Position numbers and translations under genes: made by a program. Positions 36 to 43,848 of a DNA stretch of 64,000 nucleotides are shown here, in pieces; within the stretch, counting starts at the first letter, position 1; every line of letters begins with the position of its first letter. The stretch spans positions 62,930,001 to 62,994,000 of the forward strand of contig OZ024741.1 of NCBI GenBank assembly GCA_964016885.1, written 5' to 3'. Source of the DNA: Eledone cirrhosa. Its lineage: Eukaryota. A model generated the notes under the pieces. That model was not told the DNA's origin, did no database searches, and worked only from the letters and a program-made list of their open reading frames with translations.

Positions 36-140
36 TTGTTTCTACGTTAGGCACAAGGCCAGCAATTACCCAGTTTATTACTGGTACTTTATTTTATCGA
101 CCCTCTAAGGATGAAAGGCAAAGTTAACCTCGGCGAGATT
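36..140 (-). mobile_element. 5'-truncated SINE (ATT-tailed family)
   Basis: Matches tgtttctac..ggcacaaggccagcaattacccag..tactggtactttattttatcgaccc..ggatgaaaggcaaagttaacctcggcg; (AAT)n on both sides. Confidence 0.85.
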
Positions 141-483
141 AATAATAATAATGTCAGGAAGACACTCGGCATATATCTCAGAAACAATAATGAAAGAAAA
201 TAAAAACAATTATAATAATAATAATAATAATAATAATAATGTTTTCTTTATTAACCACAAGGGTTCACATAAAGTAGACATTAAGGACAGTACAGGACAA
301 TACAGGACGGTACAAATGGGCATTTTTGCGTGTAAAAAAACAGAGGTTGAAATAAAATAACAAAGAAAAATTCCCCAATAGGGGGGAGACTTCCAAGGGA
401 CATTTGTGGAGAAAGCCCATTAAAAGACCACAGTGGCCCTGACCACCAGGGCAAGTGCCCTCTCCCAGTTTTCCACCTTTAAT

Positions 484-3400
484 TTACAGACACATACTCA
501 GAGAAGGCCCATTTATTCGGGCCATACTTGCTTCTCTCACCCATCTTTCAACAAAATGCTGGGAAGAGAGCACTTCCCTCTCTACCCTGATCTTCCTTTT
601 CAAATGAAATTTGAAAAAGTTAATCAGGGCATCACCGAAGAGGTAAGTGCTCGTCTTCAGCCCTTTCAAACGTGTCCACCATACTATCTCTTTCGCCATG
701 GCCACCAGACAGATAAAAACTGCCTGCCCTTCCAGGCTAAAGGAAGGGGGCGGGGCAATCCTCACGATGGACTCAGCTGATAGCTGGATAGGTCCTACAC
801 GTGACAGCAGGTGTTCGACAAAAACCCACAAGTCAGCAATGCTCGGACACTGGACGAGTGCGTGCAGGACGGTTTCGTCGCCCTGCGCGCATCTCGGACA
901 TGCCCGGCTGACGGCACCTCCATGCCTGTAGAGTTTATCCCGAACTGGCAAAGCTCCTCGGTAGCACTGCCAGGCCAGGGATTTCTGGAAGTTGTCCATA
1001 GGCCCCGGCCCGAAAGTCCTTCCGAAGAGATTGGCTAGTTGATTTTCGTCGACGCCTAGAGTTTCTCCAAGTACGTCGTCGCTCTTCCCCTCCACTAATC
1101 CCCTATAGAACGCCAAGGTGGAGTTTCCACCGATCACATTGCCCGATTGGTCGAGGGCTGTGAGCGCCTGAAGACATTCCAGTCTCCAAGCGCTCCCTCT
1201 CGGTCTTCGCTTGACCCAGGACTGCAGCTCCGTCAAGGAGACGAGCTGGGGAAAAACGTGTCTTGCAAACGGCGACCACACCTGATCACCGTCGAGGAAG
1301 AGGTGGAGATGTCGTAGCCTGAGCGCGTGTCTGCGCATCATCAGCCACGGCATGCCCAGCCCTCCACGTAGCGGGTGTTGACAGCAGATGGACCGCCTGA
1401 CCATCGGAGCGCGTCCCTTCCACAAGAAGCGAAAGAGCAAACGCTCCAGCGCAGTCAGGCGGGGCTTAGGACTAGGTACGACGGTCAGGCGGTAGTAGAT
1501 GACGGATGCGATGTACGCATTCGCCACCTCCGCTCGACCTTTCAGGGATAGCTTCCTCTCGGCCCATTTCTGGGTGAGAGAAGCCACCCTGCTCGTCACC
1601 TCGTCCCAGTTTTTGTCCGTCTGGAGGTCTGGACCGAACCAGACCCCTAGCAATTTAACCGGTCCGTCCGTCCAGCGCCCGACGACGCTGTTGTACGGCA
1701 TGGACCTGCCTCTCCAGGTGCCGAGCTGCAGGCCCACTGACTTTTCCTGGTTGATCATTGCTCCTGTCACCGCTTCGTATTCTCTTAGTGTAGTGCCGAT
1801 CGCCTCGATGTGTTTGGCGTTCGACACCACTACGGTGACATCGTCCGCATATGCTGACACGGATCTTCCGCATCCTAGTTCGCGCGGGACCCCCCTCAAT
1901 GTCTCCAGTTTGTGCAGTAATGGCTCGAGAGTCAATACGTACAATAGGGACGAGAGGGGACATCCTTGGCGGACCGAGCGCATGATGTTGAACGGTTCCG
2001 AAAGGTGACCGTTCACTCTCACTACAGAGCAGATGTCGCTGTGCATGGCAGCGATCCAGCCTCTGAAGACGGGCCCAAAGCCAGCCGCCCTCAGGACTGC
2101 CGCTAGGTAACGATGGTCGACCCTATCGAAGGCTTTCGACTGATCTAAATTGATCAAAGACCCACCCGTGCCAGGTTCCCTAGCTACCCTCTCTACGATG
2201 TATCGCATGAGGTGGAGGTTGTCGTGGTTGGATCTGTCGGGAATGGCGCATGTCTGTGCCTCTCCCACCAGACCACCAACGACAAGCGCCAACCTCTTTG
2301 CTAGCACCTTGGCCAAAATCTTGAACTCTGTGTTTAGCAGAGTTATGGGCCTAAAATTATCTATGTTATCCCCCTTGTTCGGATCCTTTCTCAGCAGCGC
2401 CACCGCTCCTCGGCTCACAGAGCTGGGAATTCTCCCGTTCTGTTGCCAGTTGCAGTAGACGTCCGCCAAGAGGCCTCCGAACAAGTTTGGCATTTGTACG
2501 TAAAGTTCATAGGGCAGACCATCCAAACCAGGCGATTTACCCCTTGTGCAACTAGTCATTGCATCCCGTACTTCAGCGGTTGTTATCGGCTTTTCGCAAC
2601 ACTCCGCCTCAGTGGCCGAAAGCCGCGGCAGTCCGTCGAGGTAGACACTAAAGTCCATCCCTCGATCCGGCCCGCCACTGCCCCCGAACAGTTGAGCGAA
2701 GTGTCGCTGAAAAGCTTCACACATTTGCCCGGGATCGAGTAGCATGCGCCCGTCGTGGTCCACCAAAGACCGGATCGTGTCTTTGTTGCCACGACGCGCC
2801 TCCGCCACTCGGGCCCATTGAACGGCTTTCGTCCCCTCGTGTCTGAGAGCACGCACCCTAGCTCTGACAACGCAGCCTTCGTGCTTTGCATTGAAGAATT
2901 GGTCAAGGGCCAATTTCGCCGCAAGTACGTCGGTCGCGATGCCTTTCCTAAGCGCCTCATCTAATTTTCTAACTAATTCTCCCTCTGCTCTATTTTTCTC
3001 TATTGCTAAAGTCTTACTAAACCTAATGGACTCTATTCTAATTGCTCTTTTCAGAGCAAACCACCACTTGTTGTTGACGATGGCCCCCGTCAACGCCCGC
3101 TTAACTAGTTCGCTAATCCGGTCTCTGTAGGCCTTGCGCGCTGGTAAGGACGCGTTTAACTTCCAGTAGCCGGGTCCTCGTCTATGAAGCCTATCTAAGT
3201 CAAGCACACAGATCACGAATTTGTGGTCCGTGTAGCTTAATATCTTGAATTGTGGACAGCCTATGCTAGACCTATCTATTTCCCTACAAAATACTCTATC
3301 TAGATATGATCTGGATGACCCTATGCGATTTGTCCAAGTCCACATTGGTACATTCGGGAAATCCATTCGGTACCTGTCAGACAGTTCAAAACGTCTGAGC

Positions 3401-3903
3401 AGGTTGGTGAGACTCTTGCACCCTCCTTCCCTATCCACTAATCCCACACAATCCCAGCGTGCATCTAAGATCCCGTTCCAGTCGCCCACTAACACTAAAG
3501 AGCGGGACGTTCCAAGAAAGGTCTCCAGACGCCGGAAGAAATCAGGCCGCCCTGCTCCTGTCGGGGCATAGACGGCCACTAACCTGAAAGCTTGCCCGTC
3601 TCCGCTGGTCACGTCCAGCACCACCAACTTACCTTCTGGGTCCAGGAAGATGGCCCGTATGGCAAGATCCAAACCTCTCCGAAAAAGCACAGCAACATAT
3701 CCCCCCGATCCCGGACGGCTGGGAGATGCGTACACATCGTGGCCGCCGAAGATCGGTGCGAAAGCCTGTGCTTCGGAGATTCTGGTCTCGCTGATGGCCA
3801 CTACATCTATGTTTAGTGACCTGAGGTCGTTGAGCAGGTGGCCCTGCTTCCATGACGACCCCAAGCCACGCGCATTTATGCTGCCTATTCTGAGTGAGGT
3901 CAT
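484..3903 (-). CDS. ORF2: APE endonuclease + reverse transcriptase + C-terminal CCHC zinc finger (Tx1/L1 type), intact 1139 aa
   Basis: SINARGL, ISETR, VYAP, GDWN, SYLDR, TDH (APE); GYWKLN; KSPGLDGLP, FRPITLLN, DQSKAFDRV, VRQGCPLS, AYADD (RT); CPRC..ETVLHALVQC. Confidence 0.95.
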   Translation of the reverse strand: MTSLRIGSINARGLGSSWKQGHLLNDLRSLNIDVVAISETRISEAQAFAPIFGGHDVYASPSRPGSGGYVAVLFRRGLDLAIRAIFLDPEGKLVVLDVTSGDGQAFRLVAVYAPTGAGRPDFFRRLETFLGTSRSLVLVGDWNGILDARWDCVGLVDREGGCKSLTNLLRRFELSDRYRMDFPNVPMWTWTNRIGSSRSYLDRVFCREIDRSSIGCPQFKILSYTDHKFVICVLDLDRLHRRGPGYWKLNASLPARKAYRDRISELVKRALTGAIVNNKWWFALKRAIRIESIRFSKTLAIEKNRAEGELVRKLDEALRKGIATDVLAAKLALDQFFNAKHEGCVVRARVRALRHEGTKAVQWARVAEARRGNKDTIRSLVDHDGRMLLDPGQMCEAFQRHFAQLFGGSGGPDRGMDFSVYLDGLPRLSATEAECCEKPITTAEVRDAMTSCTRGKSPGLDGLPYELYVQMPNLFGGLLADVYCNWQQNGRIPSSVSRGAVALLRKDPNKGDNIDNFRPITLLNTEFKILAKVLAKRLALVVGGLVGEAQTCAIPDRSNHDNLHLMRYIVERVAREPGTGGSLINLDQSKAFDRVDHRYLAAVLRAAGFGPVFRGWIAAMHSDICSVVRVNGHLSEPFNIMRSVRQGCPLSSLLYVLTLEPLLHKLETLRGVPRELGCGRSVSAYADDVTVVVSNAKHIEAIGTTLREYEAVTGAMINQEKSVGLQLGTWRGRSMPYNSVVGRWTDGPVKLLGVWFGPDLQTDKNWDEVTSRVASLTQKWAERKLSLKGRAEVANAYIASVIYYRLTVVPSPKPRLTALERLLFRFLWKGRAPMVRRSICCQHPLRGGLGMPWLMMRRHALRLRHLHLFLDGDQVWSPFARHVFPQLVSLTELQSWVKRRPRGSAWRLECLQALTALDQSGNVIGGNSTLAFYRGLVEGKSDDVLGETLGVDENQLANLFGRTFGPGPMDNFQKSLAWQCYRGALPVRDKLYRHGGAVSRACPRCAQGDETVLHALVQCPSIADLWVFVEHLLSRVGPIQLSAESIVRIAPPPSFSLEGQAVFICLVAMAKEIVWWTRLKGLKTSTYLFGDALINFFKFHLKRKIRVEREVLSSQHFVERWVREASMARINGPSLSMCL

Positions 3904-3937
3904 GTTGAAAAGGAGTGGAAAAGATGGGAAAGACCAC

Positions 3938-6021
3938 TTACCTTACTTCTCGTAGGGGAAGGACGGTTTTTCCATCCTTTTCACTGCTTGTGGCCTCCTC
4001 AGGAAGGATGTCCTTATAAATCCTCCTGGAGAGTGCTTGTCGGAAGTCTCCGATGTCTTTGGGGAATTTTTGTTTTAGTGTCATGTACGTTTTCTGTGTG
4101 ATGCGAGTGATTTGTATGTGTGGAGGTGGTGTGAATTTTGGGGTTGTTGTGTAGTCTTTTTCTGTGATGCTGGTGTTGTGTTGGATGTAGTACAATAATT
4201 GCTTGCTGTTCAAATTTAATTGTTTCTACTTTAGGCACAAGGCCAGCAATTACCAGTGCATTACTGGTACTTTATTTTATCGACCCCGTAAGGATGAAAG
4301 GCAAAAAATTTAATGCTGTGTAGTGTGTATCGTTTTGGTTGTTTTGTTTTGTTTGCGTTTGTTGTGGGTTTGCTTCTGTTTCGCATTTTGGTGACTTTTG
4401 TGGTGTAGGTGATGGTGGTGTTGGAGTTAATGATGGTGATGGTGTTGGTGTTTGGGTTGATGGGGTTGGTGATGCTGGTGTGGATGGTGGCATATCTGTC
4501 CTAACTTTTTTGTTTCTTAGTTTATTTGTTTCCCTCTGTATTTTGTTTTTGGAGGGGGAAGGAAGAGAATTTTTTCTTTTTTGGTTTCTTTTTTTTTTTC
4601 CGGATATCGTTTCCCACTCCTCGTCGTCACAATCTGTCTCCAGTTGTGATAGGCCGGGGAGTGGAAAATCCTCCACAGCCGTTAGTTTTGGTTGTGGTGT
4701 GGTGGATGGTGTAGGCGCTGGTGCTAGTTCTGAAGCGTTGGGTGGTGGTGGTGTTGGTTTTGCTGGTGGTGGTAGTGGTGTTGGTTTTGCTACTGTTGCT
4801 GGGGTTGTTGCTGTTATAGTTGCTTCTGTTGTTGCTGCTACAGTTGTTGCTGCCATCTCTGCTACTGGTGGTGTTGATGGTTGTGTCACTGGGGTGGGTA
4901 GGAGAGGTGGCCTCAACCTTTTAGCCTGAGGGCAGAAAGCCCTTAGGTGGGTTCCTTCACCACAAACGACACACCTAGGTCTTCTGCCCTCGACAATTAC
5001 CGTGAGGTGGCTGCCGTCAGTGAGGTCTATTACCTCTGGGATCTCCTCACTGCTTTTTTGGTCCGCTTGGATCAGGAGCTCCATCCCAGATCCGGACCAG
5101 TTTTCCTGCTTTTCTTTTGCTACTGCTATTATTTTCGTGTTGGCTTCGATGCCGGCGAGGACAGCCGCTATTAGCCAGGGAATTTCGATGGCCGGTGGAA
5201 CGTGGGTCACCCTGATCTTTACGAGTCTCTGGCCACAATAGCTTGGGACGAGTGTGAGGTCGTCACTTTTTAATGGGGCCATGGAGTGTTCTCTAGCCTC
5301 CTCTGGTGTTTCAAAGAACGCATCCACGGTTCCATACTTTTGCCCACGTCTGATGTGGGTTTTTCTTGCCCACACATGTCCCAAAGCTTTTTGGATTTGG
5401 GACTCGGATGCCCGTTCCACTCGGCGCGATTTTACATTTATTGTTCTATACGACACGGTGCACAGGCGCCGATGCTTCATTTTATTAGGTGGGGGGGGGG
5501 GTGAGGCTGACCCTGTACCCATCTTTCTTTACCATTTGTTTGGCATTTTCTAAATCTTCTTGAGTTACCGTGAACGCTTCGAATTGTTTTGCTACGATGG
5601 CGAAACTGAGGGTCGGTTTTATAATGTCATTGTTGTTGTTGTTGCTATCGTTAATATTAATTTTATTTTCAGTTGTGGTGGTGCTGACGTCAGTCGTCTT
5701 TGGTGGGGAAGAGTCCATTTTGCTTGATTTCATTTCGACGTCACGAGTTAATTTATTTTTTTCTTCTTTTGTTTCTGTTGTCGCGGTGGTGGTGGTGGTG
5801 GTGGTTGTCGCGGTGGTGGTGGTGGTGGAGGGTTTAACACCTGCAGTCATTGGTAATGGCGGGAAATGAATGTCTGCCTGAGACAAATTTAAAATATTGC
5901 TACTGCTTATATTTTTTTTTGTGTTGGCAAACGTAGTAACATTTACAATGGTGGTGTCGGTGTGAGGTGTTATTTTGTGAGGAAGGCTTTCAGCTGCTTG
6001 TTGCAGAGGTGAATTAGCCAT
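3938..6021 (-). pseudogene. ORF1 (gag-like, zinc knuckle) of the Tx1 element, split by a SINE insertion and a 1-nt homopolymer frameshift
   Basis: Starts MANSPLQQ (ATG 6021); frame change in the G/C run at ~5488-5501; CVVCGEGTHLRAFC knuckle and Pro/Thr-rich linker; removing 4221-4314 rejoins ...HYTALN-LNSKQLLYY... in frame (~662 aa). Confidence 0.8.
4221..4305 (-). mobile_element. Truncated SINE inserted in Tx1 ORF1
   Basis: Same family; 9-bp TSD aaatttaat at 4212-4220 and 4306-4314. Confidence 0.9.
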
Positions 6022-6229
6022 TTTTTTCAAAGAAATTTTTTGATAATAATAAAAGTTAAAATTTGGGGCACAAGGCCCCAATCTTTTTAGGTGTCCTTTT
6101 CGGAAAACAATGTATGTGTGCTTATAAACAGTTAACAATAAAATTTTCCATAAATGGCAATTTTTAAACAAACGGAAATAACAAACCTTTGCGGAGCTCA
6201 CGATAATACGATTTCCTACGTAGGTCGCC

Positions 6230-6284
<55 letters not shown>

Positions 6285-6286
<2 letters not shown>

Positions 6287-9200
6287 CGTAAAGAAAATAA
6301 GAATGAAGAGAGAAGCAGGCGGACGGACAGAGAAGAGGGGGGAAAAACTAAAACTTAAAAAACAAAAACTAAGTCAGACATTCGAACACTACATTACAAT
6401 GAAACTTATGCTTATTCATTTTTGGGGCCATTTCTGCCTGTGTGTTTGTTTGTCTATGTGTGTTCGTATACAGCGTGGTGATAATGCCACACAAGGGCCA
6501 AGTGGAATGGCGGATCCACAGATGGATATGTAACCATACATTCGCCAATCCTCGATAAGAGTGTTTAAATATCGAACATAAACAGTTCGAATAACGGTGA
6601 AATGGAGACTAGAACGTCATGTGACAGACTCTCACCCAACAGGTGCCCTCTGGCTCAGCAGCAGGAACCTGACTGTCAACAAAATACTGCTGATGTTGGA
6701 GGAAGGAGAAGAAGGAAAGGGGCCAGAACCAACTGGACGAAAGAATTGAATAGAACTGTTATGCAATGTTACCTGAAAAGTAACCCCAAGGAGAGGGGCT
6801 ACAGGAGACGGATGCATAACATCTGGAACGAGATTGGTTTATTTAAATTAGATGAACAAAAATTGGCCGGGCAGGCTCGGGTAATAAGAACTAATGGATG
6901 GATAGGCGAGCTGGAACTGGAGGAACTGAGCAGAGAGAATGGCTTGGAGATGGCGGGTGTAGTATGCCAGATAAGCGAGCCAGTGGGAAATGAAGGTGAA
7001 GAGGTCCTGAGAACGGAGGAACCACCCGAAGCAGACAATGATCTGAATACTGAGATAAATAATACCTGGAACAGAGATACGGCCACTGAGGAGATGAATG
7101 CTGACGGGCTAGGACAAGATTCGGTTGACATCCTAAATTTAGTGGTAGATGAATTGAACAATGATAGTGGGAGACCTATGAACCTAAGATTTGTAGACAG
7201 GAAAAAGTTAAAAGAAACAACAGCTAAGGTAAACAAAGTCTTCCCATACCTTGAGGCGAGGAGCCTTCACCAGTGCAACAATATCCTCAAAGCAACAGCA
7301 AATACGGTGAGGAAACTACTTGGTATAAAAGCGAGAGGAAACAACAGACAAGAAAGAGCAGAGCCGTGGTGGAAGAAGCGACTGAGTGGGCAAATCGGGG
7401 AAATGAGAAATGACATAGGAAAGCTTGAGTCACTACTGAATGGGACACTAAAAAACATAGGCACTAAAAATAGGCTGGAAATAAAATACAAAACTAGGAG
7501 GAAAAAGCTAAATATTATCATAGAGGAACTGAAGCAACGCATTGTAGCAAAGAGTGCAAAAATAAGGCGATACGAGAACAGAGTCAGTCAGTATAAACAG
7601 AACCGCATGTTCGACAACAACCAGAAGATGCTGTTTGGACAGCTTGAGGGGAAAGAAAGAGGCAACGACTTGATCCCTGGGGCGGAGCAAACTAAAACAT
7701 TCTGGAGAGGAATATGGGAGCAGGATGTTAGACACAATGCCCAGGCAGGGTGGATTGAGACAGTACAGAGGGAGATCGGTGAGCAGGCACAACAACAAAC
7801 TGATTTGAGTATCACAGTTGAAACTCTTAAGGGGCAGGCCAAAAAACTAACCAACTGGAAATCACCAGGCCCAGATGGTGTGCAGGGGTATTGGATTAAA
7901 CATTTAACATCCCTCCACCCGAAGCTGACGGCCATGTTCAATGACTGCTTGGTGTCGGGTGAGGTGCCAGAGTGGTTGACAAAAGGTACCACAGTTCTGA
8001 TAATGAAAGACCGAATCAAGGGTAATGATGTTACCAACTATAGACCTATCACATGTCTGTCCGTAATGTGGAAACTGTTGACGAACATTGTGTCTGAGGA
8101 AATCTACCATCACCTCCACACAAACAACTTGTTACCGGACGAACAGAAAGGATGCCGAAAGAAGTCACGTGGTACAAAGGACCAGTTACTTATTGATAAG
8201 ATGGTAATGGGGAATTGCAGGAGGAGACACACTGATCTTGCCATGGGATGGATAGACTACAAAAAGGCATTTGACATGGTGCCTCATTCCTGGATCACCA
8301 AAAGCCTGGAGATCTTCAGGGTGGCAGATAACATCAGACAGTTGCTAGGCAGGAGTATGGGGTCCTGGGAGACAGAGTTAACATCAACTGGAGTATCCTT
8401 GGGAAGCGTGAAGATCAAGAGAGGTATCTTCCAGGGAGATAGCCTGTCCCCTCTGTTGTTTGTCCTTGCCCTGATGCCCTTGACCATTATGCTGCGAAAA
8501 GTGAGAGCAGGATACAAGTTGGGAAGGGGAGAGCTTACCATCAATCACCTCCTCTTCATGGACGATCTTAAGCTCTTCGGGAAAAGTGAGAAGGAGTTGG
8601 ATGTGCTTGTTGACACTGTCCGTATTTTCAGCAGTGATATATGTATGCAGTTTGGTATTGGTAAATGTGGAGTCATTGTGATGAAGAGGGGTAGGTTGAG
8701 CAGAAGTAACGGGATCCAGATACCAACAGGTGAGATGATAAAGGAAATTGACTCTGAGGAAGGATACAAGTATTTGGGCGTTCTGGAGGCTGATGGCATA
8801 AAGAACAAAAAAATGAAGGAATTGTTAAGAACTGAATACATTCGGAGAGTAAGGAGCGTATTGAAGTCACATCTGAACAGCAGAAATGCCATAAGCGCAG
8901 TAAATTCCCGAGCTGTGTCTATTATTAGGTACAGTGCGGGAATTCTGAGATGGAATGTTGCTGAACAAAAAGAAATGGATAGGAAGACTAGGAAGCTATT
9001 GACTATCTACAACATGTTCCACAAGAGGAGTGATGTCGATAGACTCTACCTAAGGAGATCTGAGGGTGGAAGAGGTCTTATCAGCATAGAGGACTGTGTT
9101 CAGATGGAGAAAAACAACCTATACAAATACGTGACCTATAGTAAGGAGCCAATGCTCAGAACTGTACTGAAGGAGGGGACAGTAGGCCAGGGGATGTCCA

Positions 9201-10070
9201 AGGAGGAAATAACATCAAGGAGGAAGAGCAGCCTTAAGGGAAAATCCCTTCATAGTACCTTCTTTGAGAAAACTGAATTTAGAGATCCACAGACATGGAA
9301 CTGGTTGAGAAGAGGAGACCTCAAAAAGGCTACAGAAGGAATGCTAATGGCTGCGCAGGAGCAGGCCCTCAAAACGAAGTGGTTGAAGCACCATATCTAC
9401 AAGGAGGAGGCTAGCCCACTGTGCAGGATCTGTGGAGAGAGAGAGGAGACTGTGGCTCACATTGTGTCCGAGTGTAAACACCTAGCCCAGACCCACTATA
9501 AGGGCTGGAGACACGATGTGATGGGCAGGGTGATCCACTGGCACCTGTGCAAAGTAAACAATTTACCACATTCTGAGAAATGGTATGAGCATAGGCCAGA
9601 GGCGGTGATGGAGAACAATCAGGTGAAGGTGCTGTGGGATTTTAGGATACAGACGGACAAAAAACTGGAACACAATAGACCTGACCTGGTGGTTGTGGAC
9701 AAAGAAAAAAGATCGTGTCTGATTGTGGATGTGGCCTGCCCGTTCGACACGAGAGTGCAAGAGAAGGAGAGGGAGAAAATTAACCGATACCAGGACCTAA
9801 AGTGGGAGGTGAAAAGGATTTGGAACTGCCATGAAGTCAAAGTGATCCCGATTGTCATAGGCGCACTGGGGACTATCTCCAAAAGTTTCCAGGGATGGTT
9901 AAAGAAAATCGGCCCCTTCACGCTTTTTGGAACGCTTCAAAAGGCATGCTTGCTTGGAACAGCAAGAACCCTCCGATACGTCCTGAATATCTGAGGCTGC
10001 AGGTAGTGGCTTGATATTCAATCCAACGGACTTTCCAGTTAACCAACATCAATGACTGAAATTCAAGGAA
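6285..10070 (+). mobile_element. R4/Dong-clade RLE non-LTR retrotransposon, apparently full length, in (AAT)n
   Basis: Single ORF; short 3' UTR followed by (AAT)n at ~10078-10142; (AAT)n also upstream. Dong elements are known to target (TAA)n. The exact 5' boundary is uncertain. Confidence 0.85.
6602..9994 (+). CDS. Reverse transcriptase + CCHC finger + PD-(D/E)xK restriction-like endonuclease, intact 1130 aa
   Basis: NWKSPGPDG, YRPITCL, DYKKAFDMVPH, RGIFQGDSLSP, HLLFMDDLKL, CRICGEREETVAHIVSEC, RHD, RPDLVVVD..DVACP, KINRY. Confidence 0.95.
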   Translation: METRTSCDRLSPNRCPLAQQQEPDCQQNTADVGGRRRRKGARTNWTKELNRTVMQCYLKSNPKERGYRRRMHNIWNEIGLFKLDEQKLAGQARVIRTNGWIGELELEELSRENGLEMAGVVCQISEPVGNEGEEVLRTEEPPEADNDLNTEINNTWNRDTATEEMNADGLGQDSVDILNLVVDELNNDSGRPMNLRFVDRKKLKETTAKVNKVFPYLEARSLHQCNNILKATANTVRKLLGIKARGNNRQERAEPWWKKRLSGQIGEMRNDIGKLESLLNGTLKNIGTKNRLEIKYKTRRKKLNIIIEELKQRIVAKSAKIRRYENRVSQYKQNRMFDNNQKMLFGQLEGKERGNDLIPGAEQTKTFWRGIWEQDVRHNAQAGWIETVQREIGEQAQQQTDLSITVETLKGQAKKLTNWKSPGPDGVQGYWIKHLTSLHPKLTAMFNDCLVSGEVPEWLTKGTTVLIMKDRIKGNDVTNYRPITCLSVMWKLLTNIVSEEIYHHLHTNNLLPDEQKGCRKKSRGTKDQLLIDKMVMGNCRRRHTDLAMGWIDYKKAFDMVPHSWITKSLEIFRVADNIRQLLGRSMGSWETELTSTGVSLGSVKIKRGIFQGDSLSPLLFVLALMPLTIMLRKVRAGYKLGRGELTINHLLFMDDLKLFGKSEKELDVLVDTVRIFSSDICMQFGIGKCGVIVMKRGRLSRSNGIQIPTGEMIKEIDSEEGYKYLGVLEADGIKNKKMKELLRTEYIRRVRSVLKSHLNSRNAISAVNSRAVSIIRYSAGILRWNVAEQKEMDRKTRKLLTIYNMFHKRSDVDRLYLRRSEGGRGLISIEDCVQMEKNNLYKYVTYSKEPMLRTVLKEGTVGQGMSKEEITSRRKSSLKGKSLHSTFFEKTEFRDPQTWNWLRRGDLKKATEGMLMAAQEQALKTKWLKHHIYKEEASPLCRICGEREETVAHIVSECKHLAQTHYKGWRHDVMGRVIHWHLCKVNNLPHSEKWYEHRPEAVMENNQVKVLWDFRIQTDKKLEHNRPDLVVVDKEKRSCLIVDVACPFDTRVQEKEREKINRYQDLKWEVKRIWNCHEVKVIPIVIGALGTISKSFQGWLKKIGPFTLFGTLQKACLLGTARTLRYVLNI

Positions 10071-10077
10071 TAACAAC

Positions 10078-10141
<64 letters not shown>

Positions 10142-10143
<2 letters not shown>

Positions 10144-10522
10144 CCTGACCTGACTTTTGGACAAGGAAAAAAGATCGTGCCTGATTGTAGATGTAGCCTG
10201 CCCATTCGACACGAGAGTACAAGAAAAGGAGAGGGAGAAAATTAACCGATACCAGGACTTAAAGTTGGAGTTAAAAAGAATTTGGAACTGCCATGAAATC
10301 AAGGTCGCCCCGATTGTCATAGACGCACTAGGTACTATCTCAAAGAGTTTCCAAGGATGGTTAAAGAATTTTAGTCCAGCCCCGCTTTTTGTATCACTTC
10401 AAAAGCATGCTTGCTGGGAACAGCAAGAACCGTACGATACGCCCTGAATATCTGAGGCTGCAGGTAGCGGCTTGATATTCATTTTAACAACTTTTGTAGT
10501 TAAATAACATCAATGACTGAAC
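10142..10522 (+). mobile_element. 5'-truncated Dong/R4 copy (endonuclease end + 3' UTR)
   Basis: Highly similar to ~9677-10060; frameshifted; ends in (AAT)n. Confidence 0.9.
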
Positions 10523-10559
10523 AATAATAATATAATAATAATAATTTTGGTATTAATAA

Positions 10560-11368
10560 GTGTGGAGTCCTAGTGAATTGAGCAGAAGCAACGGAATCCA
10601 GATACCAACAGGTGAGATGATAAAGGAATTAGGCACTGAAGAGGGATACAAATATTTAGGTATTCTGGAGGGAGATGACATCAAGAACAAAATAAAAATG
10701 AAGGAATTGATAAGATCTGAGTACATAAGGAGAGAAAGAAGCGTATTAAAATCACATCTAAATAGTAGGAATGTCGTAAGTGCAGTAAATTCCCGAGTTG
10801 TTTCTATTATTAGGAACAGTGCGGGAATTCTGAAATGGAATGTTGCTGAACAAAAAGAAATGGATAGGAAGATGAGAAGTGGTATGAGCATAAGCCAGAG
10901 TCGGTGATAGAAAACGATCAGGTGAAGGTGCTATGGGATTTTAGGATACAGACGGACAACAAATTAGAACACAATAGGCCTGACCTGGTGGTTTTGGATA
11001 AGGAAAAAAGATCGTGCCTGATTGTAGATGTAGCCTGCCCATTCGACACGAGAGTGCAAGAAAAGGAGAGGGAGAAAATTAACCGATACCAGGATTTAAA
11101 GTGGGAGTTAAAAACGATTTGGAACTGCCATGAAATCAAGGTCGACCCGATTATCATAGGCGCACTAGGTACTATCTCAAAGAGTTTCCAAGGATGGTTG
11201 AAGAAATTAGTCCAGCCCCGCTTTTTGGAACACTTCAAAAAGCATGCTTGCTGGGAACAGCAAGAACCCTACGACCCGTCCTGAATATCTGAGGCTGCAG
11301 GCAGTGGCTTAATATTCATTTCAACAAACATTCCATTTAAATAACATCAATGACTGAGACTCAAAGAA
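10560..11368 (+). mobile_element. 5'-truncated, internally deleted Dong/R4 copy
   Basis: 10575-10873 matches ~8695-8986, then jumps to the equivalent of ~9573-10070; ends in (AAT)n. Confidence 0.9.
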
Positions 11369-11389
11369 CAATAATAATAATAATAATAA

Positions 11390-11457
11390 TTGTTTAAACT
11401 TTTGGTACAAGGCCAGCAATTACCCCAGTGCATTACTGGTGCTTTATTTTATCGATG
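11390..11457 (-). mobile_element. SINE 3' fragment (ATT-tailed family)
   Basis: tgtttaaacttttggtacaaggccagcaattaccccagtgcattactgg next to the AAT tract. Confidence 0.75.
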
Positions 11458-11462
11458 ATTCC

Positions 11463-15178: not shown

Positions 15179-15360
15179 TGTTTCTACTTTTGGCACAAGG
15201 CCAGCAATTACCCAGTGTATTACTGGCACTTTATTTTATTGACGTAAGGATGAAAAGCAAAGTTAACCTCGGCGGGATTTGAACTCAGAATGGCAAGGGC
15301 CGTAACTCTATGCGTCAAAGCATGGCGCCATGCCCTCTACCGATACTGCCAAACAATACC
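15179..15360 (-). mobile_element. Near-full-length tRNA-derived SINE (ATT-tailed family)
   Basis: A box (ttggcagtatcggtaga) and B box (gagttcaaatcc) on -; 18-bp TSD atgaaataaagaaataat at 15161-15178 and 15361-15378. Confidence 0.9.
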
Positions 15361-16590: not shown

Positions 16591-16718
16591 TTGTGTATAA
16601 TGGTAGCTATGGTGCTTCCATAGGCGGTATGCCAAAATTAGCACTCAATATTCAGCAGAGTAGAGTGTAGATAGTATAAAGAAAAAGAAAAATCAGTGAT
16701 GCATCTGGACTCAATTTA

Positions 16719-17710
16719 TTGCGTGTTACAATTGTTTCGCCGGCAGGTAGCTCGAGACATGCGCCTTACTCCAAACATGTACGCACCAACGTGCCAGGAC
16801 TTTTTTTCCGAGCGTTGGATGAGTGCTTTCCGCCGATGAACAAGTACCACAAAATCTTCAAACACCACACGGTTAAGTTTTCCTTCTCCACAACACCTAA
16901 CATACCCGACTACATGGCTAAAACTAACGCGGTGAAGATGGCGCACACTGGCCGTCAACGGCGGCGACAGAATGACCATATTTCGGAGTGCGGAGAACCA
17001 CCCAAGGACCGGCCCTCAAATGACAACCCGGCACCCGAGGCGACCATAGCGCCCACGGAGGGTGATGTGGTCAACGCCGAGAGGGAAATAGTGGCATGGG
17101 AGAGACAACAGTGTCGGCGGAACAACACCCTGAGAACCTTGAGAGGGCCATAACAGATCGAGGCCCGGACATCGGATGCATAAGAACTGGCAACAGAACA
17201 TGTAACTGTAGAGCGGGCACCCAGTGCCCCCTACATAGAAAATGCCTGATGAAGGACATAATATACAAGTGTGTGGTTACAACCCAAAACGCGCATCGCA
17301 CCTACTTCGGCGCAACATCCACGACCTTTAAATCGCGGATGTATAATCACACGAATTCCTTCAGAGACCGTAGCAAAAGACACTGCACTAGGTTAGAGGA
17401 CCTGGTGTGGGACCTGAAAGACCAAGGCACACCGTACGCCCTGGACTGGAGTATCGTTTGCCATGCGAGGGCATATTCGGCCGGAAGCAGAAAGTGCCGA
17501 TTATGCCTACACGAGGCCATGGAGATAGTCAGACTGAAAGATGACACGGTCAACCTCAAGTCTGAAATTATCATGACCTGCAGACACCAGAGAAGATGCA
17601 CATTTGCAGCATGGAATCCTCCGGGTGGCGCAGGCTGGGGCATGGGGACGGGTACGCACAGACCCGAACGGCCCAACGGGATTAGAGGACTTGGCGCCAT
17701 GCTCCGATGA
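16719..17710 (+). pseudogene. Penelope-like element 3' part (linker + GIY-YIG endonuclease, Naiad-like)
   Basis: PYSKHVRTNV..FFRALDECFP..KFSFSTTPN; CNCR..CPL..CL; IIYKC..TYFGATSTTFKSRMYNH; CRLCLHE; NLKSEI..CRH; one frameshift. Confidence 0.85.
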
Positions 17711-18493: not shown

Positions 18494-18701
18494 AGTTTCT
18501 GACTTAGGCACAAGCCAACAATTTTGGAGGAAAGGAAAGTTGATTAAATTGACCCAGTGCATTACTGGTACTTTATTTTATCAATCCCGTAAGGATGAAA
18601 GGCAAAGTCAATCTCGGCGGGATTTGAACTCAGACCGTAAAGGGCCGTAACTCGGTACTGCAAAGCATAGCGTCCGACCCTCTAGTGATACTGCCAATCC
18701 A
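18494..18701 (-). mobile_element. Near-full-length SINE (ATT-tailed family)
   Basis: 16-bp TSD atgctatataaataat at 18478-18493 and 18702-18717; A/B boxes on -. Confidence 0.9.
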
Positions 18702-19339
18702 ATGCTATATAAATAATGAGAGAAAGATGCGGTTACTTGAAGCGTTTGTAGTCTATAACCATCTTGCTTTGCTTTTATTTGTTGTTAATTTAACTGCTTG
18801 AAACATTTACGAAGGAGTGCTTTTCATACTGCAAACTTATTCATCACTATAAAATCCGACAAGAAGATACTATTTCCATCCATAATTATTACACCTTTTT
18901 TATATTTTAACCCCACTCAACCCAGAACAAATCCTGACATGTACAGAACGCAAACATTTCGTTTCAGCCATGGAGTATCATCTGCGTAAAGGCAATACGG
19001 CTACTTCTGTTGTGTTACCTTTTATGTTTTGAGGGACTTATATAAATAGTGAAAGTCTATGGTGGGGGATTGGTTGAGGAATTACAGCGACGGGAAAGAT
19101 GCTTTGTGTGATCTGTTTCGTGGTTCTGCTTTCGATGTTCAAGTTCCGCTTAGAAAGAAAAGAAACCTCCATCTTACTGGCGTGCCATTAATACTAACTA
19201 GCTAGACGTGCCTAATTTACAAGATTGTTGTTTGACACCGTAAACAGTAATTACTGTAACATGTATCTCTGAAATCATGCCTAATTTCATGAAATATTTT
19301 ATGACATGTGAATGGATACACAATGGTTTCTATTTTAGA

Positions 19340-19515
19340 CACAAATCCAACATTTTGTATACGGAGAAAGTCAATTAAATTGACTCCTCGTTCTTTACTG
19401 GTACCTCAGTTTATCGACTCCGAGGAATGAAAGGTAAAGTTGACATCGGTGGGATTTGAACTCAGAATGTAAAGAGCTGGAATACATACTGCTAAGAATT
19501 TGTCAGTCTCTCTAA
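19340..19515 (-). mobile_element. Degenerate SINE of the same superfamily
   Basis: tactggtacc..ttatcgac..gaatgaaaggtaaagttgacatcggtgggatttgaactcag. Confidence 0.65.
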
Positions 19516-19769
19516 TGGGTGGATGGATAATTAATATTATTACAAATATAACACTTTTTTATCTGCATACCTGTTACAAAACTATACCATAATCCTTTTA
19601 GAATTAAGTTTCTTTATCGTAAATTGTTACTATTTATTTAGTACATCTTTATCTATAATCGTTTAGTGATACGTTTTCCTGTTTGTTTCCCTTGCTAACT
19701 TCCCCACCAAAATATATCAGTTAATTCCCTAGACCTAGAGAATGTAACACTTCTGTCCAAGACTAAATT

Positions 19770-27142: not shown

Positions 27143-27589
27143 GGGAGTTAAAGCAATAGAGAGAAAGTAAGGATGCGATTTAATGGAAAAGTCTACTCCA
27201 GTATTAAACAGGTAAGTTTTTTTAATCGATTTCGAACGGATGTATGCCAAAATTACTTGAGGTAGGTTTTGAACTTAGGCTGCATTGAGCCGGAAAGAAC
27301 AATGCAAAGCATCCTATCCGACATCCTAACGTTTCGACTAATTCCCAGCCTTTCTATTAAATAAAACAACGAAATAGCGATATTGCAAGTTCTTTTAATA
27401 CATTTTAAAATTAATTTCTGTATAAACAAATGAAAGAAAAATCATTAGAAGATTAAATATCCGTAAAATGTTTGGAAATTATACAACTTTTTCCTATTGA
27501 CTTAAAAGTTCCCATCACGCAGAAGCTTACATACTTGCATCTATTTCATTTGATTGGTGCTTATTCAAAGGGATGTGTCGTATTGGTTA

Positions 27590-27884: not shown

Positions 27885-28069
27885 TGTTTCTATGTTTGGT
27901 ACAAGGCCATCAATGATCCCAGTACATTACTGGTACTTTATTTTATCGACCTAGTAAGGATGAAAGGCAAAGTTAACCGTGGCAGGATTTGAACTCTGAG
28001 CGTAAAGGGACGTAACTCTATGTTGCAAAGCATGGCGTCCGACTCTCTACTGATACTGCCAATCCACCG
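27885..28069 (-). mobile_element. Full-length SINE (ATT-tailed family)
   Basis: tRNA-like head on -; imperfect TSD ctaa(g/t)taataac. Confidence 0.85.
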
Positions 28070-31000
28070 CTAATTAATAACAATTTGGCGGGCGAGCATT
28101 GGATAGAAATATTTGCGCCATTTTATCACCTCTCTTTTCAAAGCCCACTGTCACCGCTTGTCATTGTGAATGAATCGATAAATAAATATTAGCCTGCGAA
28201 GGTGGAATTGTTAGAACGTCTCTCTATATCTTTAGTCTCTCTATATCAGTAGTAAGGTAGTTCTGGCATCGAATCTAGTGTAGATAAGAGACTGCATATG
28301 AAACTTCACAATCACTAATGAGCCGTGGCGTCTTAAGTGTCTTATGCTTCTAATGCGTGCGACAAGACATTACGAGTTGATGCTATTTCAATTACCAACA
28401 AACAACGTTGCCTTCAATTACATCGTGATATTTAAGATAAAGAGACATTCAAGTACGGAGAATAGAATCAATTGACTATACATCTCTCCAGACATATGTG
28501 ACTGTATGTCAATGATAGAAATCAATATTTCCTGTTTGTTTATTGTAAAACAGTTCGATTTTTCAAAGGTTAAATACGGTAAATACATTACCGTGCTGAC
28601 GCTAAACTTCGCATATATCAACGCTCATAATATCCCTTTAAGAGATTTTCTGGAAAACGATGTTTTTCATATTACAAAACATTATTTTGATTTACAGACG
28701 AATGTGACATATAAATATATTTTCAATGCCATAAAGGTTTAATGCTAAGTTCACCACGGCAGATACATTTAAGAAAATACATTTAAGAAAAATAATCAGT
28801 TGAATACAAAGTGTTTAGTCAAGCCAGTTAGAGAGCTTATAACATCAGGCCCAATAGAAATAACAGCGAAATCTTCCTCAAGTTACAACTTACTGACTGA
28901 AAAATGGAAGAGAGTCCTTATGTCATGTAGTCCTAAATAATTCCCCCATAACAGACAGTCATAACTGGGATGTTTTTCAGCATACATAAGCTGCCTCATG
29001 AGTGGCCTGTAGCTAAATAAACACAACTAAAACTTGAAGCAAACGAAGCAGAAGAGAGGGTATGAGAGGTATTATCAATAGTAGCAAGAGATACGAAGGG
29101 TGGTGGGATAGAGACAGGAAACGTGGTATTATTAGCTGCATGCCTAGACAATGCAAGCACTTTATAAAGTTGTGAAAAAACACGTTCTCAATTCCCCATA
29201 CATACACATATATTCAACTACACGCACAGAAACACATATATCTAGAAACTCGCCTGATACGTAAAAAAACATTGAAAGTACGTTTACGTTTTAGTTTTTA
29301 ATTATTTATGTTTTTATTCTTTCTTGCAAATACTTTATAATTCGGCAGGGAACAAAAATGTCCCAAACTCCTCCTGCTATCAACATTTCAATCTATTCAA
29401 AACCTTATCTTCATAATGTGTTTGACACAGTCGCAAGCATTGTGTCCATAAATCTAGGATGCATCATGCTTATCTTATGTTATATCAGGTTTGTTAGTTA
29501 TGACTGTCCACATTAGAATTCTCTTGGTATTTGTCTGTAAAGGGAATATATAAGTAGATATTTGTTTTATATGAACAGTATTACTTTTCTTACATTCAAT
29601 TTAGCTACATCTTGAAGGTGAAGTCTTTATTATTATGAAATTGCAATTTGAGTGTGGAATCAGTGACCTCTATATTTCTTCAGTTTGGTCAATGGCTTAA
29701 GAGAGTAATTTGGTTGAGAAACTATGCGGAAGCTCGTTGTCTGTCTGTATGTATGTATGTATGTATGTATGTATGTATGTATGTATGTATGTATGTATGT
29801 ATGTATGTATGTATGTATGCATGTATGTGTGTATATATGTATATGTCTATATATGTAAATATATATGTATGCATGTGTGTATGTATATATGTATGTATGA
29901 ATATATGTATGTACGTAAATATGAATGCGTGTATGCATGCATGTATGAATGTATGACTGGTTGTTTGTCAGCTTATAGATCAAATAACTAGAGGAATGGA
30001 AAAAGCAGGAGCAGCACGATTTTCCGATCACCAGCACGCTTGAACCCCTCATTGAAGTAGTGTGTGCTGTCTTGGAGCTGAAACTTGGTTTAGTTATACG
30101 TGAGAGCCCAGGAGAAGATATAACATCTTTCAAAAGAAAAGAGAAGGCAGCGCACAAAGCTAATATATTCAATAAACATTAGATGACCATTTAATTTATA
30201 CATGCTGCTTTAATTATCTAAATTGTCCCCATAACGTAAATGCTAGGTTTTAATAATAAAATAAAGGCACTACATTGGCGGTTACATAACAACAATGGAG
30301 AATATTTACGTATTGATATTTAAAAAAGTTTTATATATTTTAACAGTTCCGCTAAGAGATTATATTTGCATCTTCATATGTCCACTTAGACATTAAGTAA
30401 CATAGTCAAGTTGAAAAATAGCTATAGGCAGAAGTTTGAATCTATAATCTTAGTAGAGACATTGTGATTCCTAAATAGTTTTTTTCATTTACTGACTTTG
30501 ATAGAATTGTTCACATCTGTTCATAGCTGACCTCTATAATTGTACATATATTTATTTCTTTTTGTCACCAGAATTATCTCAGGTTCGTTATGATTGAAAT
30601 TGGCGGAAGTTTAAATGGAGACGTTTCACCAATATTGCTTGAGGTATGGAAACCTATGTATGTACACAATAGCAGAAGTATTTTTGTGTATGTGAGAATA
30701 TGTGTGTGTGTATATGAGAATATGTGAATGTGAGTATGTGTATTTTTCGGTGAGAGCATGGACAGGAAAACTGATAAATAACTTCAATTTGCACAGATGA
30801 TCCCCTGCCATCACTGCGTTAGTAAATAACTAATAACTCGTTTAAAATATATAAAGAACTGCAATTTTTCAGAATATATGATAAATAGAACGAGGTCTCA
30901 AATCAAATCATGTTTCAAACAGGTATAACACAGGGAAAAGTAGAAACGATTATTATTTCGTAACTGACGTAGGAATGATTGCACTGATACCATTTAACTA

Positions 31001-31279: not shown

Positions 31280-31415
31280 GTTTGAATGACGGATAGAATG
31301 CTTTGCGATATTCATTCCGGTTCTCTCTGCATTCTTTGAGTTCAAATACCGAAGAAGTCAACTTTGCCTTTTCTCCGTTCAAGGTCGATAAAAAAGTACC
31401 AGTCCTGTACTAGCG
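31280..31415 (+). mobile_element. Degenerate SINE
   Basis: gagttcaaataccg..aactttgcctttt..ggtcgataaaaaagtaccagt. Confidence 0.55.
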
Positions 31416-31479
31416 TCGATTCTTCATCTATGTCTTTCACATTTTCTCTCTCTCACTCACTCTTTGCTTCTCTGAAGGA

Positions 31480-32090: not shown

Positions 32091-32429
32091 CAAGAATATT
32101 GTCCTAATTTAATTTCATGAAATGCTGAAATAAATTGTGAAAGTTATTTTTACATTAAATATATTTAAAGAAAGTTCACATATATATATATAGGTGTGTG
32201 TGTGTGTGACATCGAATAAAATGCCACTTAATAGCGAAGAATAGAAGCAGAAAATGATTGAGCCGAATGAAAATGATATATTTGGAGAGCTATGATAAAT
32301 TGATATACATTTTACTTTGAATACACATTGAAATAAAAATATTCATCAGCCTGATATTCCAATATAGCTGCTCTGAAAACAATGCAATGAAATATGTGCT
32401 ATTTGATATGGTTTCGTTAAACAAATAAT

Positions 32430-32614
32430 TGTATCTACTTTTGGCACAAAGCCAGCAATTACCCAGTGTATTACTGGTACTTTATTTTATCGACTCTATA
32501 AGGATGAAAGGCAAAGTTAACCACGGCGGGATTTGAACTCAGAATGGCAAAGGCCGTAACTCTATGCGTCAAAGCATGGCGTCCGACCCTCTACCGATAC
32601 TGCCAATCCACGCA
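32430..32614 (-). mobile_element. Full-length SINE (ATT-tailed family) flanked by a ~100-bp direct duplication
   Basis: 32327-32429 is repeated at 32615-32711. Confidence 0.9.
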
Positions 32615-34630: not shown

Positions 34631-35151
34631 CTTTGAGTGTGTATGTATATATGTTTGTATATTTGATTTAAAATCGAATGGAAATTCAGATATACAGCGA
34701 TTAGATATTGAAGATGTAAATAGATTAAGTATTAAATATTAATTACATATCAAATTTTATTTATTTAACTTTTATTTTACAGAAATGCCAGGAATAAACA
34801 TGTTTCCCATACCTCACCTAAGGAATGAACAATATTGAAATTCCTTGCATCGAGATAACGATTCTAATGCGAACAAACACGCAAAAAAATAAATGCATAC
34901 CAATGTATATATACATATAAAGGATATGTGGCTGGGCCTCACAGCGATTGTAGGGTACTATAGTTCTCCTGCGCAATTGTGTATGACATTATTGTATGCA
35001 CTATATTTTCACTAAGAGTTTTAGATATTCATGTAATTATGTTAAGATACCGACAGCCTCTTGAGCCTCCCTGTTCCAACGATACTGCCAAATATCCAGG
35101 ATGTGAGAGTTGACATCAAAGAAGGCTATACTGTCACTAGGATATTATTTT

Positions 35152-35327
35152 GGCAGTATCAGTAGAGGGTCGAACGCCATGCTTTGCAGCATAGAGTTAC
35201 GACCCTTTATGATCTAAGTTCAAATCCCGCCGAGGTTAACTTTGCCTTTCATCCTTATCGGGTCGATAAAATAAGGTACCAGTAATACACTGGGGTAAAT
35301 GCTGGCCGTGTGCCAAAAGTAGAAACA
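35152..35327 (+). mobile_element. Near-full-length SINE (ATT-tailed family)
   Basis: ggcagtatcagtagag (A box), gttcaaatcc (B box); TSD attatttt at 35144-35151 and 35328-35335. Confidence 0.85.
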
Positions 35328-39692: not shown

Positions 39693-39736
<44 letters not shown>

Positions 39737-39755
39737 GACGTAAAATAAGAAAATA

Positions 39756-39786
<31 letters not shown>

Positions 39787-40885: not shown

Positions 40886-40925
<40 letters not shown>

Positions 40926-42738: not shown

Positions 42739-42767
42739 GAAAATTTAAGTAAGAAAAAAATTTTTTT

Positions 42768-42801
<34 letters not shown>

Positions 42802-43340: not shown

Positions 43341-43373
<33 letters not shown>

Positions 43374-43755
43374 TATTTTCTTATTTTACGTCCTTTATAT
43401 TATTGTTCTGCATTCTCCTGCATTGAACCACCTAGGTACTATGACATAACCTGTGTATTTGCTGGCATGGGCGTGCATCTGTGCGCTTATGTTAGTTGAT
43501 ATATTAAATTATCTATATTTATCTCCAAATCACTGATTTGTCGAGCAAACTTGTAAAAACCACTTCTAAAAAAATTTTTTTTGGGGTGTTAGTAGGCGTC
43601 AGTCATCTTACCATCCCATTCCTTCTAACTAGCCTCTGTGTCACGTGATTGATTCTTTAGAATCGGCCATTTGACTTGAAGCAGTGAGAATTTCGGTACA
43701 TAGAATCCAGTCCTCGCAAGCTGTTCGATCTACCGAATTATTATTATTTTTATAT

Positions 43756-43848
43756 CCTGCCGAGGTAGACTTTGCCTTTCATCCTTGATAAAATAAAGTA
43801 CCAGTAATGCACTGGGTAATTGCTGGCCTTGTGCCTAAAGTAGAAACA
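43756..43848 (+). mobile_element. Truncated SINE inserted in the last array unit
   Basis: 16-bp TSD attattatttttatat at 43740-43755 and 43849-43864. Confidence 0.92.

Follow-up and report, generated by a model that had tools for sequence, protein, structure and literature searches.

Stringent pairs of a LINE and a SINE are known from the L2 clade (UnaL2/UnaSINE, ZfL2-1, and ZfL2-2), where a short 3' stem-loop is recognized in a loop-specific and stem-tolerant manner; in the available text of PMC4176376, the stems of the zebrafish L2 LINEs are swappable and the loops are not. Recognition of this kind is what we propose for a Tx1-type LINE and a SINE family in a stretch of 64,000 nucleotides of the Eledone cirrhosa genome (the window), although the L2 elements belong to another clade, binding and retrotransposition have been shown for them, and the window hairpin has a shorter stem with no templated repeat tail evident. 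Within the L1 clade, LINE1-1_ZM of maize shares its 3' end with ZmSINE2/3 and L1-1_CR of Chlamydomonas with SINEX-3_CR (PMC3472496 and PMC3747384, as far as their available text goes), and the maize hairpin combines a conserved loop with a compensated stem (PMC3472496), as the pair proposed here would. The maize and Chlamydomonas elements, from plants and algae, share 50–80 nt and carry poly(A) tails, in contrast to an animal Tx1 element with ~20–60 nt shared and no poly(A). The available text of PMC3747384 treats the Chlamydomonas pair together with two models of its origin. Of 58 SINEs whose tail resembles that of a LINE, only 3 had an L1-clade tail, the cases described being from plants and algae, and the same two accounts leave it open whether stringency or relaxation was ancestral in the L1 superfamily (PMC3472496, PMC3747384). 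In crocodilians, SINEU was assigned to a Tx1 group, with Tx1-Mar, through a common target preference, as is possible for the window SINE; SINEU has poly(A) tails and no LINE was found there to resemble SINEU-1 in its 3' half, whereas the window pair also has a shared terminal motif (PMC4494074). The statement of the original prediction that L1-clade elements are usually relaxed needs softening in the light of the published stringent pairs of maize and Chlamydomonas (PMC3472496) and of the Tx1-SINE partnership inferred in crocodilians (PMC4494074).

Roughly one tenth of an octopus genome consists of SINEs, with 11.6% in O. vulgaris (PMC13282606, available part), and tRNA-Deu SINEs are named as one of the chief components of the SINEs of octopus (PMC8967140, available part). 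The window SINE resembles them in description, its tRNA-like head being combined with a core common to the SINEs of other animals. Tx1 elements and tRNA-Deu SINEs are both reported from octopus, with 13 L1-Tx1 families recently active in O. vulgaris (PMC13282606), and the accessible sections of PMC13282606 and PMC8967140 mention no pairing of the two. Nor did we find Tx1 mentioned in the accessible sections of PMC5786205, which describes the cephalopod Ceph-SINEs. Among the literature matches listed, none linked a cephalopod SINE tail to Tx1; Repbase or the older SINE literature may hold such a link.

The LINE occupies 241..6229 on the minus strand and is near full-length, its 5' boundary being placed at 6229 or at ~6042 according to how 6050-6229 is interpreted. 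Its intact ORF2 of 1137 aa (484..3897, minus) contains an AP endonuclease (PF03372), a reverse transcriptase (PF00078), and a C-terminal zf-RVT zinc finger (PF13966). Compared with solved structures, of which L1 and R2 were the only ones on offer, ORF2 matched human L1 ORF2p best (E 1e-52) and R2 at E 1e-20. Among named proteins, one of Argonauta hians is the closest (69% identity), and the sole named vertebrate match is BAC82621.1 (25% over 1075 aa), which we take to be a member of a Tx1 series. ORF1 (4272..6021, minus, start at 6021) is broken by a frame shift at a C run at ~5490-5500 and carries a SINE insertion close to its end. It has a CX2CX4HX4C knuckle and ZCCHC3-like/RRM features, with atlas matches of 0.91–0.94 to zf-CCHC and ZCCHC3-RBD clusters; searches of ORF1 against Pfam and for homologues returned no match. 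An ORF1 with an RRM-like region and a CCHC knuckle is typical of Tx1. A reverse transcriptase tree was built by a quick method with SH-aLRT support only, from 61 rows, none dropped, of which 47 were chosen among 120 matches listed. The window ORF2 fell within a 28-row clade (support 100), where it grouped with the Argonauta protein and with P0001 (99); the squid-type elements form the sister clade (98), the two being joined at 100. No labelled Tx1 or L1 rows are in this tree, and the probable assignment of the LINE to Tx1 is drawn from its architecture.

The Tx1 element appears to belong to a large and varied family. Contigs matching its 3' end numbered 8,860 in sequencing run X1, 3,986 in X4, and 16 in X10, figures that are not copy numbers, and the Tx1 sequence was present wholly or partly in 20 of the 24 run rows listed (16 studies), six of them with at least half the words; no RNA run was among the matches listed. 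A loose-end consensus of 47 contigs from X4 kept the loop in register and, at face value, broke two of the hairpin pairs (agreement 0.72, mixed registers). A search of representative proteins returned fragments at 59, 66, and 78% identity, which at the protein level are compatible with sister families. Runs labelled with many different organisms contain near-identical sequence (window 241-3900), which close relatedness, diet, or transfer would fit alike; the raw reads of one such label yielded no match. In viral contigs, none of 94 pattern matches was confirmed as a Tx1 relative.

Read on the minus strand, the 3' end of the LINE consists of the hairpin AACC-CTTGT-GGTT (253..265, loop at 261-257), AATAAA (247..252) directly after the stem, GAAAAC, and (ATT)9 from 240; written out, it is AACC-CTTGT-GGTT-AATAAAGAAAAC, then ATT. 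The hairpin is present in both the MFE and the centroid fold, its inner three pairs having probabilities of 0.85–0.91 in contexts of 60, 100, or 243 nt. In the predicted fold it is borne on a three-tier stem (237..283, minus) of UAAUGU/ACAUUA, CUUUAU/AUAAAG, and AACC/GGUU, the base tier of which uses the first ATT; the folding energy of this region is no better than that of shuffles (z −0.73 and −0.05). A resemblance to an HDV-like ribozyme or a histone stem-loop had no Rfam support (nothing found in the window and five loci). The (ATT)9 at the 3' junction (214..240, minus) is read as target microsatellite, and (ATT)18 at the 5' junction (6230..6283, minus) is common to the Tx1 element and a head-to-head R4/Dong-type LINE. 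The target of the LINE is thus represented by a single insertion with (ATT)9 and (ATT)18 on its two sides. Insertion into microsatellites is also described for the Tx1 families Kibi and Koshi, whose targets are (TC)n and (TTC)n (PMC4494074, available text); the (ATT)n target of the window is known from one LINE and ten SINE insertions only.

The SINE family has 12 copies in the window, 10 of them with a 3' end, and a length of 175–210 nt. A B-box-like motif, GAGTTCAAATCC, is present in all full copies; ARAGORN and Rfam found nothing. A core of ~33 bp is common to seven metagenome SINE loci from other animals, which share only this core. Patterns of the core had no match in viral contigs or in genome contigs, and the supplements searched held no labelled Deu/Nin or Meta domain sequence for it. 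The 5'-truncated copy at 43754..43848 (plus) ends in GGC-CTTGT-GCC at 43825-43835, followed by TAAAGTAGAAACA and by ATT at 43849-43851, and has a 16-nt TSD starting ATTATT. A second truncated copy, at 4222..4305 (minus), lies within ORF1 of the Tx1 element in the same orientation, with the exact motif at 4234-4244 and a 9–10-nt TSD, and is 98.8% identical to the copy at 43754 over 82 aligned bases. The exact 11-mer also occurs in a truncated copy at 37..140 (minus; motif 50-60; (ATT)n TSD) and in a full-length short-form copy at 15179..15353 (minus; 18-nt TSD starting ATTATT). A full-length long-form copy at 18494..18699 (minus; 16-nt TSD) has a pyrimidine tract and AAAA before a motif with one C missing. 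Two full-length copies have an altered loop on an intact stem: TTTGT at 32430..32608 (minus), with a ~100-nt duplication starting ATTATT, and CGTGT at 35150..35327 (plus), with an 8-nt TSD. The stem is broken (GGC/ACC) in a full-length copy at 27886..28064 (minus; 12-nt TSD starting GTT) and in a 3' fragment at 11391..11459 (minus), a stem-breaking G-to-A being common to two copies, and the motif is degenerate in an old long-form copy at 19325..19520 (minus). Two further old copies, at 27194-27322 (minus) and 31298-31423 (plus), retain head and core and have a different 3' part. Of the ten copies that retain a 3' end, 4 have the exact motif, 6 the three-pair stem, and 7 the CTTGT loop.

ATT follows the SINE 3' end in 9 of 10 copies, in the same polarity as in the Tx1 LINE. 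TSDs are of 8–18 nt in seven copies and a duplication of ~100 nt in one, and 7 of these 8 begin with ATT. The flanking duplication of the SINE region at 32327-32711 is far above the 8–18-nt TSDs of the other copies. The original prediction had written ATT into both 3' ends; it is mostly pre-existing target, duplicated as TSD. At 43754 the ATT predates the insertion because sister units of the 573-bp satellite show the empty site, and with the TSDs this led us to reject ATT as a templated tail. The satellite itself (39729-44205) has units of ~573 bp that are 95–99% identical, an inversion near 41946, and the SINE in one unit only, the others showing the empty site. At 30937-30958 (plus), a short SINE-like end, AAAGTAGAAACG, is followed by (ATT)3 and lacks the hairpin; it is either a very short insertion or chance. 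Tail motifs gave 3 and 7 matches in viral contigs, none in a SINE-like context.

An identical CUUGU loop, stems that differ yet pair, and a distance of 16 nt from loop to ATT in both the Tx1 LINE and the SINE, all three predicted originally, are borne out by the sequence. In an ungapped comparison of the last 21 nt anchored at ATT, the two ends agree at 14 of 21 positions. With 5000 dinucleotide shuffles, the mean was 7.6 for the shuffled whole 3'UTR (P 0.0008) and 8.5 for the shuffled last 45 nt (P 0.0034). When the Tx1 end was compared with 122 other (ATT)2+ sites of the window, the top five scores (14, 14, 14, 13, and 12) all belonged to SINE copies and the best non-SINE site scored 11. A CTNGT loop closed by at least three Watson-Crick pairs arose in 1.4% of shuffles of the last 60 nt of Tx1 and in 0.7% of those of the SINE. 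These P values somewhat overstate the case because the motif was chosen after both ends had been seen. That post hoc choice, the stem of 3–4 bp, the region z-scores near zero, and the fact that 5 of the 11 CTNGT-type hairpins in the window are background could all be taken to favor a chance likeness between short AT-rich ends. Against this, the SINE 11-mer, with up to one mismatch, has 11 matches in the window where chance would give 0.57, and SINE or Tx1 sequence accounts for 9 of the 11; the motif, fixed before the squid-type loci described below were retrieved, was then found at their terminus. We regard chance as largely refuted and very improbable.

One signature of a stringent pair, a shared 3'-terminal sequence, is present as 14 of 21 positions within the window and as an exact 11-mer with squid-type termini, and the insertion signature is the same, the LINE side being one insertion. 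The window pair would be a variant of the known stringent LINE-SINE pairing, with a shared stretch shorter than in the published pairs. Whether another LINE fits the SINE tail better was answered in favor of Tx1 within the window, at 14 of 21 positions against 6–9 for an R4/Dong-type and 6 for a CR1-type end; this comparison covered the three LINE types with 3' ends in the window. The R4/Dong-type LINE, which we presume to be such from its CCHC and PD-D motifs, has a single intact ORF (6569..9994, plus), and its sense strand terminates with (AAT)n; its opposite polarity and its 6–9 of 21 identities led us to reject it as a SINE partner, and the CR1-type end was dropped as a match at 6 of 21. 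A search for homologues of the R4/Dong-type protein returned no useful name. In one AAT array (6230-11390), this near full-length LINE faces Tx1 head to head and is followed by a number of 3' fragments of R4/Dong type and by a fragment of the SINE, so that two LINE clades use the same AAT/ATT microsatellite in opposite orientations. The CR1-type LINE (56427-59443, plus) is decayed and ends in a GGCCTG/CAGGCC hairpin before (TA)n, which has no match to the SINE tail. Frames at 16680-17710, 49151-52934, and 60955-63793, which we take to be Penelope-like RT and GIY-YIG-like reading frames, include two copies that are 96% identical over 1.85 kb.

Contigs of prokaryote genomes scanned with an ORF2 alignment yielded 72 loci, of which 66 are units of head-to-tail arrays in eukaryote DNA of the metagenome-assembled genome CAXXMW01 (G001). 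This assembly is a GTDB representative labelled Arenicella, in which many contigs consist of such arrays, as host contamination. The eukaryote DNA is probably of squid type because its SINE copies match Sepioth-SINE1 and 2A. The squid-type Tx1 units (L008–L097) have ~44% amino acid identity to the window ORF2 and an array period of ~6.4–6.8 kb; three of the 66 are cut by contig ends, leaving 63 complete. Their 3' boundary, known from array ends and from a solo copy with a 16-bp TSD, lies directly after AATAAA, without poly(A), and their TSDs are unrelated. All 63 complete units end in GGC-CT(T/C/A)GT-GCC, a second hairpin of variable sequence, and AATAAA, and the 11-mer is expected by chance at 5e-5 in the shuffled last 60 nt. 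The units form two sub-lineages with 50% ORF2 identity; the motif stands at −37 to −39 in both, and their 3'UTRs have no blastn match below E 0.01. RNAalifold returned the CUNGU-type hairpin from 10 squid Tx1 ends; the three core pairs are invariant among them, and they therefore give no evidence for pairing. An alignment of the tail of the SINE at 18494..18699 to the 3' end of squid Tx1 reached z 3.0 (4 of 300 shuffles). The long form of the SINE had no real match in CAXXMW01 (best E 0.85), and of six distant Tx1-like loci (29–33% identity), the two with 3' sequence (L070 and L074) show no such hairpin there.

Seven copies of Sepioth-type SINEs in the CAXXMW01 DNA, matching Sepioth-SINE1 and 2A, end in AAAAA(T/C)T-GAC-CTYGT-GTC, a second hairpin, and TAAATA. 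The published Sepioth-SINE1 and 2A, among the Ceph-SINEs, end in AAAAATT-GAC-CTTGT-GTC, and their structure is given in the supplement of PMC5786205, as available, as 'tRNA - Core - RTE5' - unknown3''; copies nearly identical to them thus lie in DNA that holds Tx1 arrays. They differ from the window SINE in having a CORE and RTE-5' body, a second hairpin, and no ATT preference, the head and core of the window SINE being different (PMC5786205). GC-rich tandem repeats of ~290 bp in L084 (1051-1605, plus) and L083 (2007-2383, minus) end in GGC-CTTRT-GCC (CTTGT and CTTAT), a second hairpin, and TAAATA; no reverse transcriptase match adjoins them, and they are possible non-autonomous partners. The CUUGU hairpin is a mark of one Tx1 lineage of coleoids and of two or more SINE groups, which is broader than the reading originally offered; that reading is partly supported by the sequences.

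The original prediction had called the hairpin covarying. Between families the stem does differ on both sides, but no compensatory change occurs among the 10 SINE copies, and covariation is confined to the between-family comparison for that reason. In an alignment of 15 ends across families, 3 of 4 pairs changed on both sides, with a covariation of 0.355 against 0.153, reached in none of 500 shuffles, and of 0.05–0.21 in slid registers. Because the rows are related, hand-picked, and loop-anchored, this amounts to about three independent events and carries no P value.

When the SINE RNA was folded in its longest form, the hairpin had a predicted pair probability of at most 0.03 in 7 of 8 copies and of 0.71 in one; it is outcompeted because CCAGUAAU pairs with AUUGCUGG. 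When the last 42 nt were folded alone, the probability was 0.48–0.92 in 6 of 8 copies, and the same hairpin had values of 0.01 in a Sepioth copy and 0.04 in the L084 repeat. These models speak against a free-standing hairpin in the full SINE RNA. They would also fit a reading in which the Tx1-derived motif is a signal for 3'-end processing or stability, or a relic, and the SINE today depends on a different LINE with ATT targets (RTE, L2, or CR1) that lies outside the window. In all Tx1 ends observed the motif stands ahead of AATAAA, RTE and CR1 families were recently active in Octopus vulgaris (PMC13282606, available text), and the Sepioth-SINE middle is RTE-derived (PMC5786205, available text), all of which would be compatible with such a switch. 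However, the SINE lacks AATAAA after the motif and still has an 11-mer identical to that of squid Tx1, while the 3'UTRs of the squid sub-lineages no longer align. By eye, and with small numbers, the T stretch ~10 nt before the TSD given as an RTE signature in the available text of PMC6007223 is seen in 1 of 7 SINE copies, and SepiaSINE, OegopSINE, and IdioSINE2, also by eye, have RTE middles without the motif. We rate the use of another LINE as decidedly unlikely.

A second CTTGT hairpin, absent from the original prediction, lies at the 5' end of the Tx1 LINE, where GGCCTTGTGCC stands exactly within a 7-bp stem, TTGGGGC-CTTGT-GCCCCAA (6063..6081, minus), with pair probabilities of 0.98–1.0. 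It contains the exact 11-mer of the SINE and of squid Tx1 (6067-6077), 45 nt ahead of the ORF1 start and 16 nt ahead of ATTATTAT, and this 11-mer is the longest common substring between the Tx1 5' region and a squid-type 3'UTR. The stretch 6050-6229 may be the 5'UTR of the Tx1 element; alternatively, 6229-6050 may be a second, truncated element whose 3' end is followed by ATTATTAT. The stem of the SINE matches that of squid Tx1 and of the copy at 6067-6077, unlike the Tx1 3' stem at 253-265, and the longest common substring of the SINE and the window Tx1 3'UTR is 8 nt, the 11-mer matching the Tx1 5' end instead.

These observations raise the question whether the lineage is right and the hairpin wrong. 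A sister Tx1 family ending in GGC-CTTGT-GCC could move the SINE, the sequence at 253-247 could descend from an upstream TTGTAAATAAA module with an incidental stem, and the true homologue could be 6067-6077, arising by circular permutation of a squid-type tandem unit or as part of a sister's truncated 3' end (6229-6050) lying head to tail. Descent from that module is conceivable because squid-type units retain TTGTAAATAAA upstream of the hairpin, with GGCCTYGTGCC 200–260 nt downstream of it, and the window Tx1 3' end joined to its 5' end reproduces this squid order. Squid-type relatives do build head-to-tail arrays. GGGGAATTTTTCTTTGT is common to the window Tx1 and the first module of L043, although that alignment as a whole is not significant (z 0.8). 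ATTATTAT follows 6067-6077 after 16 nt, and GGAC-ACCT-AAAAA upstream of it aligns to the L084 3' end (z 4.1, 1 of 300), whereas the Tx1 5' segment as such has no significant match to the squid 3'UTR (z 0.7 and −0.1). The spacer of the SINE has the length found at the window Tx1 3' end (13 nt) and not that of the 5' segment (16 nt), and a sister as the driver would make a well-folded CUUGU hairpin at the exact end distance of the SINE a coincidence. Without 6050-6229, moreover, the 5'UTR would be ~20 nt, against roughly 300–470 nt (by eye) in relatives. We think a sister family with the working hairpin unlikely. Several states not seen in squid Tx1 unite the SINE with the window Tx1: both lack a second hairpin, end in AGAAA(A)C, have a spacer of 13 nt following the three-pair stem, and target ATT.

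Taken together, these sequences make it very likely that the SINE tail is Tx1-derived and is moved by an ATT-targeting octopod Tx1, of the window family or a sister. That a Tx1 lineage drives the SINE is, in our estimate, clearly probable. The more specific reading that we prefer, with somewhat better than even confidence, is that the SINE end was captured from a coleoid Tx1, that an ATT-targeting octopod member copies the SINE, and that 253-265 is the working version of the hairpin. A coleoid LINE of the Tx1 type (L1 superfamily) would have donated its 3' end as the last 25–60 nt of the SINE, and the cis signal would be a short stem closing a CU(U/C/A)GU loop, 13 to ~35 nt before the RNA end. 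ORF2 would read the loop and the stem would need only to pair, which would leave the stem free to drift among GGC/GCC (squid Tx1 and the window SINE), GAC/GTC (Sepioth-SINEs), and ACC/GGT (window Tx1). The endonuclease would nick at ATTAT(T) and reverse transcription would begin at the RNA end, yielding a TSD of 8–18 nt; by way of the captured end, the SINE would borrow the Tx1 machinery. The sequences, their terminal position, the TSDs, the polarity of the targets, and the lineage of the proteins are observed, whereas hairpin formation in the SINE RNA, ORF2 binding, and trans-mobilization are proposed. The original prediction had the Tx1 family of the window recognize the hairpin and mobilize the SINE: the terminal hairpin at the level of the lineage and the common target motif and polarity speak for it, with the window family as a candidate driver, 253-265 as a putative orthologue of the SINE hairpin, and binding by ORF2 as a prediction. 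In a fuller scenario, which we consider rather doubtful, the Tx1 lineage would be as old as the squid-octopus split, stringent and CUNGU-reading, and a partner of both the octopod SINE and the Sepioth-SINEs, two groups built independently; the window Tx1 would be a circular permutation of the squid-type tandem unit, in which the 5' end bears the ancestral hairpin and the new 3' end has regained the same loop with a different stem.

The 5-nt loop is a defined target for mutation, and the window supplies an intact ORF2 for an assay. If the preferred reading is true, an animal Tx1 lineage whose terminal hairpin was captured by two SINE groups would be a further data point on stringency. It would also name the driver of one abundant octopus SINE and explain the 'unknown' tail of the Sepioth-SINEs.
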